DNA of 64,000 nt from a virus (Duplodnaviria; Caudoviricetes): IMG/VR virus record IMGVR_UViG_3300021387_000034, positions 1-64,000 of that record; one strand, written 5' to 3'. Position 1 is the first letter of the stretch; each line of letters starts with the position of its first letter. Both the position numbers and the translations under genes were made by a program. Below, piece by piece: positions 2,893-37,073 of this stretch. Below the pieces are notes generated by a model that was not told where the DNA came from, searched no databases, and was given only the letters and a program-made list of their open reading frames with translations.

Positions 2893-3858
2893 TCAAGGTT
2901 TCTTTTTATGAATTTTTAATTCTTTGCTTAGTATTGTTTCTATATTATCGTAATCCAAATAAGAAATTTCGATAAGTTTTATCTTATGCCGTTCGCAATA
3001 TTGACGCAACACCAAATCCCTTTCTTGTTGCTTTTTAAATTTGCGTTCCCCGCCAAAATGACGAATTGGTGTATAATGTTGCATACCGTTAAATTCGATA
3101 AAGCAATTATATTTAGGGATATAAAAATCAACGAAGAAGGATTTTGTTTCACAAAACAAGTCGTTAGTGGTTATTTTGTATTGCCTTATGTAATCCACAT
3201 TACATGCGTCAAGAAAAATTGATATTTTATTTTCACCTTTCGAGCAACAACAATGCGGACACCCAACACCTTGCAAATGTGAATACGCCATTTGCGAAAA
3301 AATTCCGTGTTTAGGGCAAATAATATCCACTTTGGCATGACCGTCTGTATATTTTACTAACTTGTAATCGTATGTGCCAACACCGTGAACGTCGTTTGCT
3401 TCTTTTATAAAATCATCAGTTGTTTTTGTTTGACGTTTTGTCAAAAGTTCGCCTTTACACATAGGGCAACCACTGCCATGCAAATGACTATATGGTTCTT
3501 GCCAAAAATCTCCATGAATAGGACACGTTATACACACCTTATCTTTTTTCGTTTTATAATCTACTTTTGAATATCCATATTTATTACCGTGAACAATAAG
3601 TGCTTTTTCTATAAATTTTTTTGTTCCAATAGCCCTTTTTTGCGCGGTAGTGTTTATTCCGCACGATGGGCATCCACAACCAACTTTATAGTGGAGATAC
3701 GGCGTTTGTTTAAATACTCCGTGAATAGGACAAATAATCGTTACTTTTGTATCACTATTTACGTATTCAACTTTAGAGTAGTCATACTTGTCGCCATGCA
3801 CTTGCTTTGCACGGGCAATAAATTCTTCTTGAGTCAACTTTTTAGGCATAATTTCCAA
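2893..3858 (-). CDS. putative homing endonuclease with three Zn-ribbon repeats and a C-terminal PD-(D/E)xK-like nuclease
   Basis: Three repeats of HG.KY.Y..V.Y......V.I.CP.HG.F.Q....H..G.GCP.C; C-terminal VDFYIP...IEFNG.QH. Confidence 0.75.
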   Translation of the reverse strand: MEIMPKKLTQEEFIARAKQVHGDKYDYSKVEYVNSDTKVTIICPIHGVFKQTPYLHYKVGCGCPSCGINTTAQKRAIGTKKFIEKALIVHGNKYGYSKVDYKTKKDKVCITCPIHGDFWQEPYSHLHGSGCPMCKGELLTKRQTKTTDDFIKEANDVHGVGTYDYKLVKYTDGHAKVDIICPKHGIFSQMAYSHLQGVGCPHCCCSKGENKISIFLDACNVDYIRQYKITTNDLFCETKSFFVDFYIPKYNCFIEFNGMQHYTPIRHFGGERKFKKQQERDLVLRQYCERHKIKLIEISYLDYDNIETILSKELKIHKKKP

Positions 3859-22993: not shown

Positions 22994-24244
22994 TTATTTT
23001 ATCAATTCTGACATTGCTTTTGCCCAAACGTTGTCTTTATTTTTAAGTGCACCGTAAATGATGCGCACATCATCGGTATCACGCCCGCCAAAGACATTTC
23101 TTTTTAACGCTTTCGCCTTACCATATTTCTGTGCCAAATCACTTGCAAGTATTGAGGTTTGGCGGTACGATACGCACAACTGAATGCCAGCCGTTTTGAT
23201 TGCGTTCCGCAAATCGACTATAAAGTTATACAGAACTTCGTCACCTTTCGCCATTACATTAAATTCAACGTTTTTCTCATAGTGCATCTCGAAAAATGCA
23301 AAGCGGTTAATTGTGCTTGCGTCTTGAACGCTTCTTGCTGTATATTCAACGTCTGCACCCGTTAACGCTGTGTTACCTGCGGCAATTATGCGAAAATTGG
23401 GATGAGCTTCAACACAACCGATAATCGGAAAATCATATCTGCGGTTAGCTATTGCCGTGTTTAAAACTACAAGTGCTTCGGGTGCGCTTGCATCCATTTC
23501 ATCAATGAAAAACAACCCTCCCTTTGTAAAAGCTTTGAAAAACGGCGTATCTTGATAATTGCCGTTAGCATCTCCGTACCCCTTTACATCATGCGCAAAT
23601 AGCACCTGTGATTGTGTGTAATAATCGAGGTTAAGAGTCGATGCAATTTGTTCTGCTGTGTGCGATTTGCCGCAACCTGCTGCACCATACATATAAACGG
23701 GTTGCCCATGTGCTATATAGTCGGCAATCTCTTCAAAATCACTGCACCTATACTCGTTGGGTTTAACGCCAGCCCTTTTGATTATTGCCTTCACCTTTGC
23801 GGGTTCTGCTGTTGCAAGCTTGGTTAATTCTTCGCGCACTATTTCGCGTACCTTTGCAATATCCACATCACCGCCACGAAGATTTTTAATAGCTGCAATA
23901 AGAGCCTGTTCGTTAACGTCTTCGGTTGGTTCGTTATTATTTATACCTTCGTTAACTACTTCTTCAACTTCTTCAACGACCTCGGTCGGTTCGTTGACTG
24001 GTGCTGTTGTTGGTTTCGGCCGTGGTGTGCATGTGCTTTTCTTTTTCTTGATTGCCTCCCAGCCTTCGGCCGTTTTTAGGTATGTACCGTCTTCAACATG
24101 CTCATCGAGGACGAGGCATGTATTACGATTTAAGAAACGCTGACCACAACCTTTTCCGCGTACCGAAAAAAAGATGCGGTCGTTTTTGATTGTTAAATTG
24201 CTAACATTAACCTCTTCACCAGTGATTTGATTTTTGAATAACAT
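22994..24244 (-). CDS. MoxR/CbbQ-type AAA+ ATPase
   Basis: Walker A GAAGCGKS, Walker B FFIDEMD, IIAAGNT, Arg-finger DASTINRF. Confidence 0.85.
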   Translation of the reverse strand: MLFKNQITGEEVNVSNLTIKNDRIFFSVRGKGCGQRFLNRNTCLVLDEHVEDGTYLKTAEGWEAIKKKKSTCTPRPKPTTAPVNEPTEVVEEVEEVVNEGINNNEPTEDVNEQALIAAIKNLRGGDVDIAKVREIVREELTKLATAEPAKVKAIIKRAGVKPNEYRCSDFEEIADYIAHGQPVYMYGAAGCGKSHTAEQIASTLNLDYYTQSQVLFAHDVKGYGDANGNYQDTPFFKAFTKGGLFFIDEMDASAPEALVVLNTAIANRRYDFPIIGCVEAHPNFRIIAAGNTALTGADVEYTARSVQDASTINRFAFFEMHYEKNVEFNVMAKGDEVLYNFIVDLRNAIKTAGIQLCVSYRQTSILASDLAQKYGKAKALKRNVFGGRDTDDVRIIYGALKNKDNVWAKAMSELIK

Positions 24245-29447: not shown

Positions 29448-30260
29448 ATGATTGAACTCGACAAGATTTACAACATGGACTGCCTCGAAGGTATGAAGAT
29501 GATTCCGAATAGGAGTATCGACTGCATCATCACGGATTTGCCTTATGGGACAACATATTCAGACTTTGACAAAATGCTGCGAAACAACAAAAGAATCCGC
29601 CAATACGACATTATTTCCATGCCCCTTTTGTGGGAACAATATACGCGAATTATCAAGCCTGATGGTGCTATCTGTTTATTTGCATGTCAACCGTTTACAT
29701 CTACGCTTGTGGCTTCCAACGTCGAGTGGTATAAGTATTCGTGGATATGGATAAAGAACAAAGCAGCAAATCATGTCGCCATCAAATACCAGCCGTTAAA
29801 GATTACCGAAGAGATTTGCGTATTCTCTAACGCAGGTGTTAATACAAGAAGTCTCTGCCCCATTAAATACAACCCGCAGGGTGTTATCTGGAATAGACAG
29901 ACAAAAACAAGAAAAAATGACATTGTCAAACGTGGTGTGTATAAGTATAATAACCTTAAAGCTGGGATTTACGAGGTTAAAGGAAACAATTATCCTACGA
30001 ATATGCTTTACTACCCTGTTCCTTCTGGCAAAGAGCGAGTCCATCCCACCCAAAAGCCCGTCGAACTCATCCGCTATCTTATTCGGACGTACTCCAATCC
30101 TGACGACACCATACTTGATTCGTGCATGGGTTCAGGTACAACAGCAATCGCAGCACTGCGTGAAGACAGACATTTTGTCGGCTTTGAGTTGAATAAGGAA
30201 TACTACGACAAGGCAAACAAAAGGATAAAGTTAGAACAACAACAATTAAGTTTATTTTAA
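29448..30260 (+). CDS. DNA amino-methyltransferase (N6-A/N4-C, beta class) 1
   Basis: DCLEGM, TDLPYG, HPTQKP, DSCMGSGTT; start moved to MIELDK. Confidence 0.9.
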   Translation: MIELDKIYNMDCLEGMKMIPNRSIDCIITDLPYGTTYSDFDKMLRNNKRIRQYDIISMPLLWEQYTRIIKPDGAICLFACQPFTSTLVASNVEWYKYSWIWIKNKAANHVAIKYQPLKITEEICVFSNAGVNTRSLCPIKYNPQGVIWNRQTKTRKNDIVKRGVYKYNNLKAGIYEVKGNNYPTNMLYYPVPSGKERVHPTQKPVELIRYLIRTYSNPDDTILDSCMGSGTTAIAALREDRHFVGFELNKEYYDKANKRIKLEQQQLSLF

Positions 30261-30272
30261 AATATTATAATC

Positions 30273-30623
30273 ATGGAAATTCAAGGTAGAGTAATTGCAA
30301 TTTTAGAGCCACAAAGATTCGTTTCGCAAAAGAACGGAAACGAATATGTGACTACCGTGTTTGTCATCGAAACCCCTGGCCAGTATCCTAAGAAAGTGGC
30401 CATGAAAGTAATGGGTGAGGATAAGTTCAAGCAAATGGGTATCGTTATCGGTGGTACTTATAACGTGTCGTTTGATGTGGAAAGCCGTGAATGGAAAGGT
30501 AAATGGTTCACAGAAGCGTCGGCTTGGCGTGCGCAACGTATTGATGGTGTTCAACAACAACCTGCTAACAATAATAACGTGAATGAGCAACCGCAAAAAG
30601 CAAACGATGATGTACCTTTCTAA
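30273..30623 (+). CDS. DUF3127-like OB-fold / SSB-like protein
   Basis: MEIQGRVI..L; YPKKV; VSFDVESREWKGKWFT; acidic DDVPF tail. Confidence 0.8.
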   Translation: MEIQGRVIAILEPQRFVSQKNGNEYVTTVFVIETPGQYPKKVAMKVMGEDKFKQMGIVIGGTYNVSFDVESREWKGKWFTEASAWRAQRIDGVQQQPANNNNVNEQPQKANDDVPF

Positions 30624-30649
30624 GCGTATCTAAAGAATACACATCTACT

Positions 30650-30991
30650 ATGGCGAATAAGAAAGCAAGATTGCAAGAACTTTGCCGTGAATATCTTTCA
30701 CGCTTACGTTACATGGGTAAGAAACACGGCATTGATGTTGATGCGATTATCCGTGCCAACAAGAGGCATGAATGCGAGGCAACGGAGAAAGAGGTTTCTA
30801 TGCTTTCACGACTTGTCGATGATGAACGTGTTAGCCGCAAGGATATACCAGAAATTGTCGGCAAGTCATATCGCCAATGTTGTGATGACGGTACGTTTGA
30901 CAAGATAAAGACGTTGAAACGTGTCGGTATTTATTCTAAAGTTAGTGCATTGTTGTATAAAAGCAAAATAAATGAAAGAACCGAGAAGTAA
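30650..30991 (+). CDS. hypothetical DNA-binding protein
   Basis: 113 aa, with HTH-like RKDIPEIVGKSYRQC. Confidence 0.65.
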   Translation: MANKKARLQELCREYLSRLRYMGKKHGIDVDAIIRANKRHECEATEKEVSMLSRLVDDERVSRKDIPEIVGKSYRQCCDDGTFDKIKTLKRVGIYSKVSALLYKSKINERTEK

Positions 30992-31616
30992 TGTTTTTAA
31001 TGTTGATTGCGTAGAATATATGCGCACATTGCCAAATAATTATTTCGACCTTTGTATTGCCGACCCCAATTACGGGATAGGCATAGCAGCCAATCCTGTA
31101 CGGCAAGCGCATGAAAGAAAAGACTGGGACAATAAAACACCAGACAAAGAGTTCTTTGATGAACTATTCCGTGTGTCAAGGAATCAGATTATATGGGGCG
31201 GTAATTATTTTGACCTACCACCAACGAAAGGCTTTATCGTGTGGGATAAAAAACAGCCGATAGATTTCACGCTTTCTATGTGCGAATACGCTTGGACGAG
31301 TTTTAATAAGCCTGCAAAGATGTTTAGGGAGCACGTTCCGTCTAATGGAGAGGTAAAAATCCACCCAACGCAGAAAAGCGTAAACTTATATGCTTGGATA
31401 TTGCGCAACTATGCCAAAGACGGTGACTTGATATTTGACCCTATGATGGGTAGCCAGTCGAGCCGTATAGCAGCATACAAGATGGGCTTTGATTATGTAG
31501 GGTGCGAGGTTGAGCCTTTATACTTTAACAAAGGGAACGAACGCTTTAACAAGATATGTAACGGAGTAGTAAAACAATCCGATGGAACTGAAATTAAACA
31601 ATTAACTTTGTTTTAG
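30972..31616 (+). CDS. DNA amino-methyltransferase (beta class) 2
   Basis: DCVEYM, IADPNYG, IIWGGNYF, HPTQK, DPMMGSQSS. Confidence 0.85.
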   Translation: MKEPRSNVFNVDCVEYMRTLPNNYFDLCIADPNYGIGIAANPVRQAHERKDWDNKTPDKEFFDELFRVSRNQIIWGGNYFDLPPTKGFIVWDKKQPIDFTLSMCEYAWTSFNKPAKMFREHVPSNGEVKIHPTQKSVNLYAWILRNYAKDGDLIFDPMMGSQSSRIAAYKMGFDYVGCEVEPLYFNKGNERFNKICNGVVKQSDGTEIKQLTLF

Positions 31617-31634
31617 TTAAATAACATTAAATTA

Positions 31635-31666
31635 TTTGGAAATATGAAATAAAAGTAGTATCTTTG
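31635..31666 (+). promoter_or_regulatory. sigma-A promoter followed by a structured leader
   Basis: TTTG-N20-TATCTTTG. Confidence 0.8.
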
Positions 31667-31914
31667 CACCAACCTATCAACCATGCGTTGAAAAGGTAAC
31701 GGTGGCGTAGTTCCCGAAAGGGTGGTATCTTTTTAGGTATTATTGGTTAATTGCGCCACTTGTTAAGAAAGAATCGTTGATGCGTTGCCTATCACTTTAG
31801 ACGCAAAAACGTAGAGATATAAGTAATTACTATTTTCGCCAAAACGGGTGATAAGAAATTGGAGTGATAGCCAAGAGTATTATCGCCCGTTGGCTTTTAA
31901 AACTATCACAAATT

Positions 31915-32465
31915 ATGAAAAAAGAGTATTTAGCGGCACTTGCCAGCCCACAATGGCAAAAGAAACGTCTTGAAATCATGCAAAGAGACAATTTTACTTG
32001 CCAATTTTGCGGTTGTAAGGATAGAACGTTGCACATTCATCACAAAGTGTACGAAAAAGGAAAGAAACCTTGGGAATACGAAGACAAGGATTTGATTACT
32101 TTGTGCGATAGGTGTCACGAATACATAACCGATGAAAAAAACAGTCTTTACGAAAATTTTACCAATGCACGAGATTGTTTTAGAAAGTTTGGTTTTAGTG
32201 ATTCGATTTTTAATGCAATTTTGTGTGGCTTTTGTTCTTTTTTCGAAAGCATAAAAGAACAAGAAAAACATTGGAATTTTGATATAACAAAGCAAAAAAC
32301 ATCCATGATGCTGTTATGAGCACCCAAAATTATGACGATGTTAAAACCCTCGTTAAATTGGGGATTAAAGAAAAAGAATTGGTGAATTTCAATTATCCTA
32401 TTTTTCTTGAAGACTATGATAATGCTAAAATAGATAAAAACGTATCTTTACTTCTTAATGATTGA
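31915..32465 (+). pseudogene. HNH endonuclease gene with an apparent -1 frameshift near 32290
   Basis: WQKKRLEIMQRDNFTCQFCG...LHIHH...LITLCDRCH; frame 0 stops at 32319, while the -1 frame is open 32292-32465 and abuts the next gene. Confidence 0.65.
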
Positions 32466-32473
32466 TTGCTAAT

Positions 32474-33334
32474 ATGGAAAGAAACGATTATATTACCATC
32501 CAATCCTACATGGTAACGGAACTTGGATTGAGCGGAAACAATTTGATTATCTATGCCCTTATACATGGTTTTTGTAAAGATGGAATACACGAATTTAAGG
32601 GTAGTATAAATTATATTTGTGAATGGACTAACCTTACACGAAACACCGTGATAGCTATTCTAAAGCAATTAGTTGAAAGTGAATTACTCGTAAAGAGAAC
32701 ATACAAGGAAAATAATGTTACTTTTTGCGCTTATTCATTGGGTAGTGCAAAAATTGTACCACCAGTGCAAAATATAGATGAGGGTAGTGCAAAAATTTCA
32801 CCCAATAATAATATAGATAATACTAAATTGAAAAAAGATAAAGAAGAATCTTTATCTAAAAGTGCAAGCGATGTGGAACTTTTTGAAAAATGTTGGATTG
32901 AATATAGGAGAAAAGGGAAAAAGGGCAAATCCTTACCATATTGGAAAAAACTAACTGAAAGTGAGAAGCAAATGGTACTTCCACATATCAAGGCTTATGT
33001 AACAAGTCGTGAATTACAATTCCAACAGGATTTTGAACGATACCTACGCGATAAAACATTTACCACAATCGTATTTTCAAAAAACAAGGTAATATATGAC
33101 CCTACAAGGTTAGACAAGAAAGACAAAGCCAATGAGGTATATATGCCGCTAACGGACGGTGCATTATCATGGAGCAACGATTTAAATTGTTATGTTTACG
33201 TAGGAATGTACTACGGTCATGTTTCCGATGGATATACCGATGAAAACCGTCCTAACGGCGCAAAGGTGTTTCTTGGTAATGGTGGCGGTTATATTGTTTG
33301 GAATAGCGAAACTAAAACTTGGGATAAGATATGA
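32474..33334 (+). CDS. replication initiator / replisome organiser-like protein
   Basis: N-terminal wHTH (SINYICEWTNLTRNTVIAILKQLVE), low-complexity linker, FEKCW.EYRRKGKK domain; upstream of primase-helicase. Confidence 0.7.
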   Translation: MERNDYITIQSYMVTELGLSGNNLIIYALIHGFCKDGIHEFKGSINYICEWTNLTRNTVIAILKQLVESELLVKRTYKENNVTFCAYSLGSAKIVPPVQNIDEGSAKISPNNNIDNTKLKKDKEESLSKSASDVELFEKCWIEYRRKGKKGKSLPYWKKLTESEKQMVLPHIKAYVTSRELQFQQDFERYLRDKTFTTIVFSKNKVIYDPTRLDKKDKANEVYMPLTDGALSWSNDLNCYVYVGMYYGHVSDGYTDENRPNGAKVFLGNGGGYIVWNSETKTWDKI

Positions 33335-34140
33335 TAGAACTCGATAAAATATACAACATGGACTGCCTCGAAGGGATGAAGATGATTCCAGACGGGATGG
33401 TGGATGCCATCATCTGCGACTTGCCATACGAGGTTCTGCACAAGAACAACCCCAACGCACAATGGGACAGACTCATTCCGATGGAACCGCTATGGGAGCA
33501 GTACAAGCGCGTCATCAAGGACAATGGGGCCATCCTGCTGTTCTGTCAGGGAATGTTCACGGCACAGCTGATGATGTCGCAGCCGAAACTCTGGCGATAC
33601 AACCTTGTCTGGGACAAGTGTCGCTCGACAGGCTTCCTCAATGCCAACCGCATGCCGCTGCGCTGTCATGAGGATATCGCCGTGTTCTACAAGTCGCTGC
33701 CCGTCTATCATCCGCAGATGACCGTCGGCACACCAAGTCATCCGCGTCATCCGCAGGGGAACGGCAAGCACAAGGAAACCAACAACTGCTACGGCAAGTT
33801 TAAAAGCGGGCGAACCTACGACTACGACAAGCAGATACGCAAGGTAGAGCCGACACGGCCTGGCGAGAAGTTTCCCACGAGTATCATTCGCATCAAGAAA
33901 GAACATGAAACCACCGTGCTCCATCCCACGCAGAAGCCCGTCGAGCTTATCCGCTATCTTATCCGCACTTACAGCGAAACGGGTGGGGTAATTCTCGACA
34001 ACTGCATGGGCAGTGGCACGACGGCTATAGCGTGTATTAAAGAAAAGCGTAATTTTGTAGGGTTTGAATTGGATAAGAACTATTACGAGATTGCAAAAAA
34101 AAGAATAGAAAAAGAACAATCACAATTAAGTTTGTTTTAG
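33331..34140 (+). CDS. DNA amino-methyltransferase (beta class) 3
   Basis: DCLEGM, CDLPYE, HPTQKP, DNCMGSGTT; GC-rich core. Confidence 0.9.
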   Translation: MIELDKIYNMDCLEGMKMIPDGMVDAIICDLPYEVLHKNNPNAQWDRLIPMEPLWEQYKRVIKDNGAILLFCQGMFTAQLMMSQPKLWRYNLVWDKCRSTGFLNANRMPLRCHEDIAVFYKSLPVYHPQMTVGTPSHPRHPQGNGKHKETNNCYGKFKSGRTYDYDKQIRKVEPTRPGEKFPTSIIRIKKEHETTVLHPTQKPVELIRYLIRTYSETGGVILDNCMGSGTTAIACIKEKRNFVGFELDKNYYEIAKKRIEKEQSQLSLF

Positions 34141-34144
34141 TAAC

Positions 34145-36304
34145 ATGTACGAAATAGACGAATCGCAAATAAGGCTTTGGTGGAGCGTATTCAACCCACA
34201 AAACAAGTTGGTAGAGATACGCTTGTTAGGAAAGAATACGTATAGTGGGTATTTCAAGGATATTGATACTCTTATTGCCCAAATACGTCCTTTGCTTGAC
34301 CATAACAACATGCAATACTATGGTGCTATGCAAGCGTATTTCACGTTGAACGAAATCAACGAGGATTTGTATAGCCGCGAGCAACACGACGTATTTGTAA
34401 AGAAGCCGAAGTCAACGACCGCCGACGGAGACGTAATACGCAGGCGTTTTGTTCTTGTTGATTTAGACCCGTCGCGTGCGGCAGGGATAAGTGCAAGTGA
34501 TGCGGAATTTGAAAAGGCACATTTAAAGGCTGTTGATATTTATAGGTATCTGATAAAAGCAGGTTTTAAAGAGCCGATGATAACAACATCTGGTAATGGC
34601 TATCATGTTTATCTTCCTTGCGACATGCCAAATGATGATGTTCACACAGAAATAATAAAGCGTTTCTTGAAATCTTTATCAAAGATGTTCTCCGACGAAA
34701 ACGTTGAAATAGACGAAAAAGTCTTCAACCCTGCGAGAATAGATAAACTTATTGGAACATGGGCTAAGAAAGGAAGTGACACACAAGAAAGGAAATGGCG
34801 TATTTCGCGCATATTGAAAGTTCCGTCAGATATGACTCCCAATGATGCCGCTTTGTTCCAAAAGATAGCGGACTTATTGCCAAAGGAAGAACCAAAGAAC
34901 GTACCTAATCAAAATTATAGAAATCAATTAAGTACCAATTTCGATTTACGAACATGGCTAAAAACATATAACATAGAATATAAAGAAACAACGCAAGGTA
35001 ATAGTACAAAGTTTGTTTTGCGTCATTGCCCTTGGGAAGATACACATAGCAGTAAAAAGGAATGGGAAAGCGCATTGTTTTTGGCACAAGACGGACAAAT
35101 CACGTTTTCTTGTTTCCATAATCATTGTAAATCAAGGACATGGTTTGATTTTCGCCAATTCTATGAACCCGATGCGTATAATAAGCCAGTATATCAAACA
35201 CAAATGTATGCACCACGTCAATATGCGCCGCAAAAGCCAAAGTACGAAATAAAGGACGTATTGCCAGAACTTGGAGAAAAGTGGCTTTCCATGTCATCTA
35301 TACAAAAAGTGGATTTGTCAAAGTTGGAACATTATGCTACTGGTTTTGCCGAACTCGACAAGAATATAATCGGTCTTTATATGTCCGAAGTAACCATATT
35401 ATCTGGTAGTAACGCAAGTGGTAAATCATCGTGGTTGAATACATTATTGCTAAATATAATACAACAAGGCGCAAAGGTTGCGCTATGGTCGGGAGAATTA
35501 CGGCCAGACATTCTTAAAACGTGGGTGCAAATGGTTGCGGCAGGTAAGAATAACCTACGGCAATCAACGTATGATGACGGGAAATATTATGTGCCGAATA
35601 ATATAGCCGAACGTATAGACCAATGGTTAGATGGAAAGTTTTTCTTGTATAACAACGATTACGGTGCAAAATGGCAGCAAATCTTTCACGACATGGAATT
35701 ACTCTTAAAGGCTGGTGTAAAAGTGTTTGCTTTGGATAACTTGTTTAGCCTTGATATTGACATTCTTGATGGTGACAAGAACAGTAAACAACGTGAATTG
35801 ATTTTACAAATAAAGGACTTTGCTAAAAAGAACCAAGTCCACATTATATTGGTTGCACACCCGAGGAAAGTGACCACATTCCTTAGAAAGAACGATATAA
35901 GCGGAACTTCGGATTTGCAAAATGCGGTTGATAAAATATTCATAATCCATCGTGTGAATAATGACTTTTTCCGTGCAGGAGCTGAGTTTTTTGGGCAAGG
36001 TGAAATCCAACGTTTCCAAGGTTTTGGAAATGTTGTTGAAGTGTGTAAAGAAAGACTTTATGGTGTCGTTGACCTTATGGTAGGTATGCAATATGAAATC
36101 GAAAGTCGGCGTTTCAAGAATACGATAGATGAAAATGTACAATATGGTTGGGAATTGCCACCCGCACAAAGCGCGATTTCGTTTGATGATAGGCAAGTGT
36201 ATAGCCAACCACAAGAAAACGCAACACAAGCAAAGGAAACGGCAAATAACGCAAACAACGACATGCCGTTTGAACCTTGCTATGACGATAATGCGCCTTT
36301 TTAG
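34145..36304 (+). CDS. primase-helicase fusion (AEP-type primase plus SF4/DnaB-like helicase)
   Basis: LVDLDP, SGNGYHVY (AEP motifs); SGSNASGKS, ALDNL, LVAHPRK (SF4 motifs). Confidence 0.85.
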   Translation: MYEIDESQIRLWWSVFNPQNKLVEIRLLGKNTYSGYFKDIDTLIAQIRPLLDHNNMQYYGAMQAYFTLNEINEDLYSREQHDVFVKKPKSTTADGDVIRRRFVLVDLDPSRAAGISASDAEFEKAHLKAVDIYRYLIKAGFKEPMITTSGNGYHVYLPCDMPNDDVHTEIIKRFLKSLSKMFSDENVEIDEKVFNPARIDKLIGTWAKKGSDTQERKWRISRILKVPSDMTPNDAALFQKIADLLPKEEPKNVPNQNYRNQLSTNFDLRTWLKTYNIEYKETTQGNSTKFVLRHCPWEDTHSSKKEWESALFLAQDGQITFSCFHNHCKSRTWFDFRQFYEPDAYNKPVYQTQMYAPRQYAPQKPKYEIKDVLPELGEKWLSMSSIQKVDLSKLEHYATGFAELDKNIIGLYMSEVTILSGSNASGKSSWLNTLLLNIIQQGAKVALWSGELRPDILKTWVQMVAAGKNNLRQSTYDDGKYYVPNNIAERIDQWLDGKFFLYNNDYGAKWQQIFHDMELLLKAGVKVFALDNLFSLDIDILDGDKNSKQRELILQIKDFAKKNQVHIILVAHPRKVTTFLRKNDISGTSDLQNAVDKIFIIHRVNNDFFRAGAEFFGQGEIQRFQGFGNVVEVCKERLYGVVDLMVGMQYEIESRRFKNTIDENVQYGWELPPAQSAISFDDRQVYSQPQENATQAKETANNANNDMPFEPCYDDNAPF

Positions 36305-36373: not shown

Positions 36374-36793
36374 ATGGAGAAACAAAAACTTTACGTAAAA
36401 AACGAAAAAGGTCGTTACGAACCTTACCGTGAACCCGAGCCGCCATTTGACAACGTGCTTTACCGAAAGGTGATGCGTGGAAAGAAAGTCATGTATGAAC
36501 CACAATCCATGTGCATTGACAAAGGGTTAGAGGAAGGCGTTTGGGTAGTCGTAAAGCACATGTACGGCAAATCCTATTCAACGGGTAAGTACCTTAATGA
36601 TTGTTTCATGCTTTTAAAGGCGTGTGACATTCAAGAAACGCCACTTTCTCAATTAGGCGGTATGGATAAGTTGGCCGATTGGCTTTGCTTCAATTGGGAT
36701 AGATTACCACAAAATACATCAAGATACGACATTTGCCGTGCTATTGTAGGAATATTATTTGAATACGAAAAAGATAATAAAAATGGAAAGTAG
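36374..36793 (+). CDS. hypothetical protein
   Basis: 139 aa. Confidence 0.75.
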   Translation: MEKQKLYVKNEKGRYEPYREPEPPFDNVLYRKVMRGKKVMYEPQSMCIDKGLEEGVWVVVKHMYGKSYSTGKYLNDCFMLLKACDIQETPLSQLGGMDKLADWLCFNWDRLPQNTSRYDICRAIVGILFEYEKDNKNGK

Positions 36794-37073
36794 TAATGTT
36801 GACAAGTTTAGCGAAATCCTTTGGGAAATGAGCGAAACGTATAAAAAGAAAAATGCTGACTATGGAAATAGTTTTGGCGATACGATAAAAGAGTTCGGTT
36901 TTATACCTGCCGTTGCGCGTATCAACGATAAACTTAACCGTATCAAGAAAATGGTTAAGGGCGAAAAGATGAATATTGAAGAAAGTATGCAAGACAATTT
37001 GATTGATATTGCCGTATATAGTATATTGACAGTTTTAGAATTAGACAATCAAGAAAATGGGAAAAATACATGA
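36759..37073 (+). CDS. DUF1599-like (nucleotide-modification-associated, alpha-helical NTP-PPase-like) protein
   Basis: YKKKNADYGNSF...RINDKLNR...ESMQDNLIDIAVYSIL. Confidence 0.8.
   Translation: MNTKKIIKMESSNVDKFSEILWEMSETYKKKNADYGNSFGDTIKEFGFIPAVARINDKLNRIKKMVKGEKMNIEESMQDNLIDIAVYSILTVLELDNQENGKNT

Follow-up and report, generated by a model that had tools for sequence, protein, structure and literature searches.

Candidate beta-clamp-binding tails on the DNA methyltransferases of a phage that probably infects Bacteroidales

Why do three DNA methyltransferases (MTases) of one phage, one of them divergent from the other two, end in almost the same five amino acids (aa)? The question is raised by the IMG/VR virus record IMGVR_UViG_3300021387_000034 (Duplodnaviria; Caudoviricetes), an 82,010-bp genome with direct terminal repeats that was rated complete. 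Its first 64 kb constitute the stretch analyzed here, referred to below as the window. The closest relatives of the window genes belong to Prevotella/Bacteroidales assemblies and to rumen and gut metagenomes, and judging by these nearest gene relatives the host of the phage is probably a member of Bacteroidales. The answer we favor, with moderate confidence, is that the tails are beta-clamp-binding short linear motifs carried by ordinary beta-class MTases, which they would tether to the sliding clamp on replicated DNA. The three enzymes and their tails are located as follows.

29448-30260, plus strand: MTase1, a 270-aa beta-class N6/N4 DNA methyltransferase (Pfam PF01555, E = 4e-32, 112 bits, residues 24-258)
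30243-30257, plus strand: QLSLF tail of MTase1, candidate beta-clamp-binding pentapeptide; the last five codons, past the Pfam domain end
30972-31616, plus strand: MTase2, a compact, divergent 214-aa PF01555 methyltransferase (E = 5e-13, 50 bits)
31599-31613, plus strand: QLTLF tail of MTase2, candidate beta-clamp-binding pentapeptide; follows the last helix (182-197) and a small hairpin linker
33331-34140, plus strand: MTase3, a 269-aa beta-class N6/N4 DNA methyltransferase (PF01555, E = 1e-32, 114 bits)
34123-34137, plus strand: QLSLF tail of MTase3, candidate beta-clamp-binding pentapeptide; located where the extended last helix ends

Translation reproduced the C-termini noted in the initial annotation, namely ...EQQQLSLF* for MTase1 (ending at 30260), ...EIKQLTLF* for MTase2 (31616) and ...EQSQLSLF* for MTase3 (34140). 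All three match the clamp pentapeptide consensus QL[SD]LF or QxxL(x)F. Among all six-frame open reading frames (ORFs) of at least 50 aa in the whole 82,010-bp phage, a terminal QLxLF occurred in MTase1, MTase2 and MTase3 only, with one internal QLxLF elsewhere. A relaxed terminal pattern applied to the 124 putative genes added a fourth methyltransferase, MTase4 (...QTELNLV), and two ORFs that are probably not genes. The chance of a terminal Q-L-x-L-F, estimated from residue frequencies, is about 1 in 10^4 to 10^5 random proteins, so the occurrence of the tails is far beyond chance.

The enzymes that carry these tails appear conventional. Their Pfam scores exceed the curated cut-off of PF01555 (N6_N4_Mtase), 26.7 bits, and they show the circularly permuted order of the beta class, with motif IV near the N-terminus and motif I near the C-terminus. 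Motif IV reads DLPY at residue 30 in both MTase1 and MTase3 and DPNY at residue 31 in MTase2, while motif I reads DSCMGSGTT at 224, DNCMGSGTT at 223 and DPMMGSQSS at 156, respectively; the motif I-like pattern common to the three is D-x-x-M-G-S-[GQ]-[ST]-[TS]. DLPY is a variant of DPPY: D30, L31 and Y33 were invariant in 120 homologues, and P32 was present in at least 90% of them. The catalytic motifs are intact and, judged from the D-type motif IV alone, the methylated base would be N6-methyladenine (m6A) or N4-methylcytosine (m4C). Solved family members with sequence matches were 9c3u, 8urk, 1eg2, 1g60 and 6pbd; for MTase3, the relatives 9c3u and 8urk were matched at E about 5e-23.

MTase1 and MTase3 share 47% protein identity, whereas MTase2 is 29% identical to MTase3 and nevertheless ends in QLTLF, which bears out the remark in the initial annotation that a divergent enzyme keeps the motif. 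The first 20 aa of MTase1 and MTase3 (MIELDKIYNMDCLEGMKMIP) are also identical, and their genes agree at 70 of the first 90 nucleotides (nt; 29448-29537 versus 33331-33420). This likeness suggests that the pair arose by paralogous duplication, perhaps accompanied by local gene conversion.

Conservation of the tails was evaluated in 120 homologues of MTase2 (53-80% identity) and 120 homologues of MTase3 (65-88% identity). A Q-x-x-[LMIF]-[FWL] pattern lay no more than four residues from the end in 107 of the 120 MTase2 homologues. In the 81 of them that end in F, glutamine occupied position -5 in 78, leucine position -4 in 57 and leucine position -2 in 72, with position -3 variable (S, T, N). 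The information content of the MTase2 lineage from -5 to -1 was 4.1, 2.7, 2.1, 3.7 and 4.3 bits, compared with 1-2 bits per position in the preceding linker. On these alignments, the tail profile of the MTase2 lineage is that of the clamp pentapeptide.

The MTase3 lineage was more varied. The pentapeptide form (QLTLF, QLKLF, QPTLF and others) was present in 57 of the 120 homologues and a hexapeptide form of the QxxLDF type, e.g., QLTLDFEE or QPALDFATD, in 24, giving 81 of 120 in total; 19 more had an end of the x-[LMIF]-[FW] type. The QP-x-LF variants are credible clamp motifs because the C-terminal QPDLF of phage Mu MuC was experimentally shown to bind E. coli DnaN (PMC12867686). The codons behind the peptide are not fixed: QLTLF is written CAA TTA ACG CTG TTT in a related phage, and QLKLF is written CAG TTG AAG TTA TTT in Streptococcus phage IPP21. 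Since codons differ among relatives that keep the same peptide, a purely DNA-level signal is ruled out, and the alignments indicate purifying selection on the tail at the protein level in several lineages.

A specific form of such a DNA-level signal deserves separate mention. The Bacteroidetes -7 promoter consensus is TAnnTTTG, and the codons TTA-A[GC]T-TTG for L-[ST]-L contain it, so that a conserved gene end could in principle drive the next gene. The end of MTase2 (...CAATTAACTTTGTTTTAG) and that of MTase3 (...CAATTAAGTTTGTTTTAG) both hold a perfect TAnnTTTG, and the genes following MTase1 and MTase3 begin 4-13 nt past the respective stop codons. In contrast, the end of MTase1, TAAGTTTA, has one mismatch to the box, the ACG CTG codons of the related phage destroy it, and Firmicute phages keep the peptide with other codons. 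Moreover, 86 of 158 homologue tails (QLKLF, QPTLF, QTSLF, QQQLF and others) cannot be encoded together with TAnnTTTG. We therefore rejected the promoter box as the general cause of peptide conservation, on the grounds of the differing synonymous codons and the incompatible tails, and regard this explanation as very improbable. The perfect boxes arising from TTA-ACT/AGT-TTG codons lie at 31599-31616 and 34123-34140, just upstream of the next genes, and may, in this phage, be a local by-product.

If the peptide is selected as a peptide, it could still serve the catalytic fold itself, as a final beta strand or as motif III of the S-adenosylmethionine pocket. Such a role would suit the strand-like alternating hydrophobic pattern L-x-L-F, and beta-class MTases do have motifs I-III at the C-terminus. 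However, the PF01555 domain ends about 11 residues short of the C-terminus. When homologues of known structure (9c3u at 249 aa, 8urk, H. pylori DpnA 5hek/5hfj, MboIIA 1g60) are aligned, the match ends with the last helix and the structures stop right past it, with no such strand. In the AlphaFold2 model of MTase3 (mean predicted local distance difference test score, pLDDT, of 80), the last helix spans residues 249-266 and the residues after it are free. The model of MTase2 (mean pLDDT 86.8) has a helix at 182-197, a small hairpin and then QLTLF without secondary structure at a pLDDT of about 64; in neither model is the tail packed into the sheet. Between the last helix and the motif there is almost nothing in MTase1 and MTase3, about 12 residues in MTase2 and about 30 in MTase4, and the majority of family members have no tail. 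A core strand or motif III was rejected as an explanation because solved homologues stop at the last helix, the modeled tail is free and most family members are tail-less; we consider it hardly credible. By alignment and model, the tail is an appendage outside the catalytic fold. The motif directly follows the helix in MTase1 and MTase3, so its accessibility is less certain there than in MTase2.

The initial annotation had stated that no phage polymerase or clamp was seen in the window. Within the window this holds, but the genome does encode a beta clamp in its last 18 kb, outside the window, and the gene for MTase4 lies close by.

76231-77397 of the genome (L001:706-1872), minus strand: beta sliding clamp of 388 aa (PF00712, PF02767 and PF02768, all above cut-off)
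78220-79125 of the genome, minus strand: MTase4, a 301-aa PF01555 methyltransferase (80 bits) with the motifs DIPY and DPFAGSGST and the end QTELNLV

The clamp matched 55 solved clamps in the PDB, the best being 8dt6 (E = 1e-38). Its client-pocket residues M382, P383, M384, L385, G182, L185, P256, V261, L294, K337 and A363 were 94-100% conserved in 119 clade members. Searches of the whole phage found no Pol III alpha (PF07733), no family A or B polymerase (PF00476, PF00136) and no clamp loader (PF13177); therefore, loading of the clamp would fall to the host loader, and synthesis to the host polymerase.

Members of this clamp clade occur on phage contigs of 62-88 kb, and the related phages also have tailed MTases, with the ends QLSLF, QLTLF, KTLFD, QKGLFD and QQELALV. 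On a Bacteroidaceae contig, an MTase with the end QLTLF directly follows a clamp homologue. MTase4 is two genes from the clamp in the present genome, with only an HNH gene between them. Its tail follows a linker of about 30 residues, is kept as QQELALV in a related phage and may be a degenerate clamp motif of the hexapeptide type. Related phages (L010:182-2401, L015:1447-3666) also encode PF01555-containing proteins of 739-744 aa that end in ...VKQKGLFD, a further tail resembling a clamp motif; their genes lie just upstream of that for the clamp.

The phage clamp was co-folded with residues 180-214 of MTase2, each partner having its own alignment. The interaction prediction score from aligned errors (ipSAE) was 0.69 (0.69, 0.67 and 0.70 in three runs), compared with 0.00 for the best control; these values refer to the MTase2 tail and the phage clamp only. 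In calibration, 58 of 80 solved complexes attained this ipSAE mark, as did 2 of 110 mismatched pairs. Contact agreement between the runs was at least 90%, and partner pLDDT was at least 58. Tail residues 206-214 touch clamp residues 180, 182-183, 185, 256, 261, 337, 361, 363 and 380-388, i.e., the cleft between domains II and III that is closed by the C-terminal M-P-M-L segment. The score fell to 0.00 when an unrelated protein took the place of the clamp. The contacted clamp residues were more conserved than the clade average (0.84 versus 0.70, permutation p = 0.002). The initial annotation had suggested co-folding the tails with Bacteroidales DnaN; the model places the MTase2 tail in the canonical pocket, with the phage clamp rather than Bacteroidales DnaN as the partner.

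An exposed and conserved terminal peptide could also dock to something other than a clamp, such as another replisome protein, the MTase dimer interface or a protease adaptor, in which case the likeness to clamp motifs would be coincidental. Several hubs use short hydrophobic C-terminal peptides, and the same module of the phage contains SSB-tip-like ...D-D-x-P-F ends on a single-strand DNA-binding (SSB)-like protein and on a primase-helicase. Beta-class MTases are, in addition, often dimers, as in M.RsrI, MboIIA and CcrM. Against this, the conserved positions (Q at -5, L at -4, a variable polar residue at -3, L at -2 and F at -1) are exactly those of the clamp pentapeptide, and the QxxLDF hexapeptide variants fit known clamp motifs as well. 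The co-fold also selected the canonical pocket and lost its score with an unrelated protein. We consider a non-clamp partner unlikely.

Binding of the tails to a clamp would place the MTases as follows. Each tail would insert into the clamp's hydrophobic cleft, at the junction of domains II and III, where Pol III alpha, Pol II/IV/V, MutS and Hda also dock. The MTase would then be held on the clamp encircling the freshly replicated duplex, with the phage-encoded clamp and/or host DnaN as the partner; such clamps would either stay behind on the new phage DNA or travel along with it. Such tethering would be expected to raise the local MTase concentration and to permit one-dimensional scanning for target sites. 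Methylation would be concentrated on replicating phage DNA, and progeny genomes would be protected early from host restriction. Physical binding, the choice of clamp and the biological benefit are what we infer here from sequence and structural modeling.

The pay-off of clamp binding might, on the other hand, be competition with host clients, namely Hda in regulatory DnaA inactivation (RIDA), Pol IV and MutS/MutL. Host replication control or repair would then be disturbed, and the phage clamp would act as a buffer or as a private platform. Phage Mu MuC, which has clamp-binding motifs, is indeed lethal when overproduced, as titration of the clamp deprives Hda of it (PMC12867686), and the present phage has three or four tailed proteins and an extra clamp gene together with no polymerase or clamp loader. 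However, in this genome and in its relatives the motif is located on DNA methyltransferases rather than on small dedicated inhibitors, and the catalytic motifs of these enzymes are intact. Furthermore, tailed MTases also occur in five complete cultured phages that lack their own clamp. We give competition as the main benefit little weight. Speculatively, a private clamp may make up for host clamp titrated away by several abundant clients, a buffering role that is plausible because MuC is toxic through clamp titration.

The five cultured phages are Streptococcus phage IPP21 (tail QLKLF), Staphylococcus phage IME1354_01 (QMELFDI), Bacteroides phages BI-TP1 (QTNLFDK) and BF486P1 (QTSLFGV), and Cellulophaga phage Nekkels_1 (QTTLF); no clamp gene was found in these five complete genomes. 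The host clamp is consequently the likely general partner. The proposal of the initial annotation that the phage tethers its MTases to the host clamp can thus be retained in part: a clamp-binding peptide is predicted from its position outside the fold, its conservation and the co-fold, but the host clamp is not the sole option, as the phage has its own. Outrunning restriction enzymes, the benefit suggested in the initial annotation, would be a plausible purpose.

Beyond close relatives, the tail becomes rare. Among 149 representatives that share 40-57% identity with MTase3, about 18 had LF-type ends. Of 80 relatives examined in cellular genome assemblies, 78 were complete, and 14 of these had LF-type ends, mostly in Bacteroidales/Prevotella and beside phage genes. 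These Bacteroidales/Prevotella relatives share 56-67% identity and often lie near YopX, DUF3127 and DUF1599 genes and in one case near a clamp gene. The tail was also present at one Streptococcus mitis locus, while Clostridia relatives (44-51% identity) were mostly without it. By this distribution, the tail is lineage-specific within PF01555. Two neighborhoods of tail-bearing homologues are clearly phage-like gene arrays. Three tail-less homologues come from contigs measuring 0.9-3.3 kb, and one of the three has phage-like neighbors; some tail-less PF01555 relatives also occur in phage-like contexts. Clostridia/Bacillota relatives of MTase3 (L072, L081-L083, L085, L088, L091-L096, L098) lack QLxLF and have another conserved C-terminal extension, ...LFLAWEGLDKKTRK-I---NLI-EFEER.

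Several of these observations weigh against clamp tethering. The tail is missing in 131 of the 149 representatives and in 64 of the 78 complete cellular-genome homologues; because most PF01555 relatives at 40-55% identity are without it, these enzymes do not in general require tethering. Docking could be hindered in MTase1 and MTase3, where hardly any flexible linker separates the motif from the last helix. The co-fold support covers a single pair, the MTase2 tail with the phage clamp. The passing score may be due in part to recall of the many clamp-peptide complexes already solved, and it shows likeness to a clamp client rather than binding. Conservation of the pocket is not specific evidence for MTase clients because the pocket would be required for the host polymerase anyway.

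The three tailed MTases are embedded in a replication and DNA-metabolism module that spans 27.3-38.8 kb on the plus strand. The gene order is YopX, MTase1, DUF3127 SSB-like protein, MTase2, HNH protein, DnaD/HTH_36-like protein, MTase3, primase-polymerase/DnaB-like helicase and DUF1599. Three of the neighboring genes are described as follows.

30273-30623, plus strand: SSB-like protein (DUF3127) with the end ...NDDVPF (Pfam PF11325, E = 2e-24; PHROG 4932, single-strand DNA binding protein)
32462-33334, plus strand: DnaD/HTH_36-like putative replication initiation protein (Pfam HTH_36, E = 1.5e-5; weak DnaD_N match)
34145-36304, plus strand: 719-aa primase-polymerase fused to a DnaB-like helicase, with the end ...DDNAPF (Pfam AAA_25 and DnaB_C above cut-off; weak LigD_Prim-Pol match)

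The DnaD/HTH_36-like gene is directly upstream of MTase3 and overlaps it by 4 nt, and the primase-helicase gene starts 4 nt past the MTase3 stop codon. The C-terminus of the primase-helicase, ...NNDMPFEPCYDDNAPF, contains two D-x-P-F elements. In E. coli, the acidic C-terminal tip of SSB is DDDIPF, and the ends of both the SSB-like protein (30273-30623) and the primase-helicase (34145-36304) resemble such a tip. This resemblance suggests a second peptide-hub network within the same replication module.

The module also includes a DUF1599 protein ('nucleotide modification associated domain 1') at 36759-37073 on the plus strand. A 416-aa CobS-like AAA+ ATPase is encoded at 22994-24244 on the minus strand; it matched a CobS-like PHROG and, weakly, a clamp-loader PHROG (E = 3e-4). 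These two proteins may be linked to further DNA modification or clamp handling. HNH/homing-endonuclease-like genes are scattered among the replication and MTase genes, at 31864-32319 (plus strand), 2893-3858 (minus strand) and genome positions 77420-77920 (minus strand), the last being the gene between MTase4 and the clamp gene.

Full methylation of phage DNA before restriction is usually credited to timing and enzyme abundance. If the tails bind the clamp as predicted, the tether would provide a mechanistic answer to how methylation stays ahead of host restriction. DNA methyltransferases would join the bacterial clamp clients, as a prokaryotic parallel to the eukaryotic maintenance methyltransferase DNMT1 and proliferating cell nuclear antigen (PCNA), and the presence of a beta-clamp gene in phages without a polymerase might be explained. 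A wider proposal, which we regard as possible rather than probable, is that clamp-tethered, replication-coupled methylation is a widespread and undescribed strategy of phages and mobile elements. Some phages, the present one included, would carry a private clamp, with neither polymerase nor loader, mainly as an MTase platform, a 'tool belt' that allows progeny DNA to be marked without starving host clamp processes. The idea is directly testable because cultured Bacteroides, Cellulophaga, Streptococcus and Staphylococcus phages carry similar tails. In practical terms, it might help in predicting the restriction escape of Bacteroidales phage-therapy candidates, and the tail might serve as a portable tag to bring enzymes to replicating DNA.

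Each part of the system is ordinary on its own: PF01555 enzymes, a DnaN-family clamp and a textbook clamp peptide. What is new is the combination. In line with the impression given in the initial annotation that no such system had been described, we found, in the open-access full-text literature, no publication on it and no bacterial or phage DNA methyltransferase reported to carry a clamp-binding motif. To our knowledge, no DNA methyltransferase is among the established clamp clients. The canonical clients with QL[SD]LF or QxxLxF are Pol III alpha and delta, Pol II, Pol IV, UmuC, MutS, MutL and Hda. The phage tails have in common with them the consensus, the terminal or exposed position and the predicted insertion in the cleft of domains II and III, C-terminal M-P-M included; here, however, the would-be clients are enzymes of a phage, which may also supply the clamp.

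The PF01555 family and fold are shared with the characterized beta-class enzymes M.RsrI, M.MboIIA, DpnA and CcrM, and the presumed anti-restriction role is shared with orphan phage MTases such as T4 Dam and P1 Dmt. In contrast, solved or characterized beta-class enzymes end past the last helix or carry other C-terminal domains, and no clamp tether has been described for them. Phage proteins other than polymerases do use terminal clamp-binding peptides to couple a process to replicating DNA, as T4 gp33 and gp55 do with gp45 and Mu MuC/Mor with host DnaN (PMC9690074, PMC12867686). The QP-x-LF ends of some MTase3 homologues are similar to QPDLF, with which MuC terminates (PMC12867686). Those proteins are transcription factors, whereas the cargo here is a DNA-modifying enzyme.

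In eukaryotes, replication-coupled maintenance methylation depends on DNMT1 and PCNA through a PCNA-interacting peptide (PIP) box (reviewed in PMC9690074). Both systems would comprise a DNA methyltransferase with a short clamp-docking peptide outside the catalytic domain (PMC9690074). They differ in the clamp (PCNA trimer versus beta dimer), in the domain of life and in the motif, which is QxxLxxFF in the N-terminal region of DNMT1 versus C-terminal QLxLF in the phage MTases. DNMT1 is a C5-cytosine maintenance enzyme with a proven interaction, whereas the phage enzymes are of the N6/N4-type beta class and their interaction is predicted. By analogy, DNMT1-PCNA would be the closest functional counterpart of the tailed phage MTases, and the closest phage precedents would be T4 gp33/gp55-gp45 and Mu MuC-DnaN.

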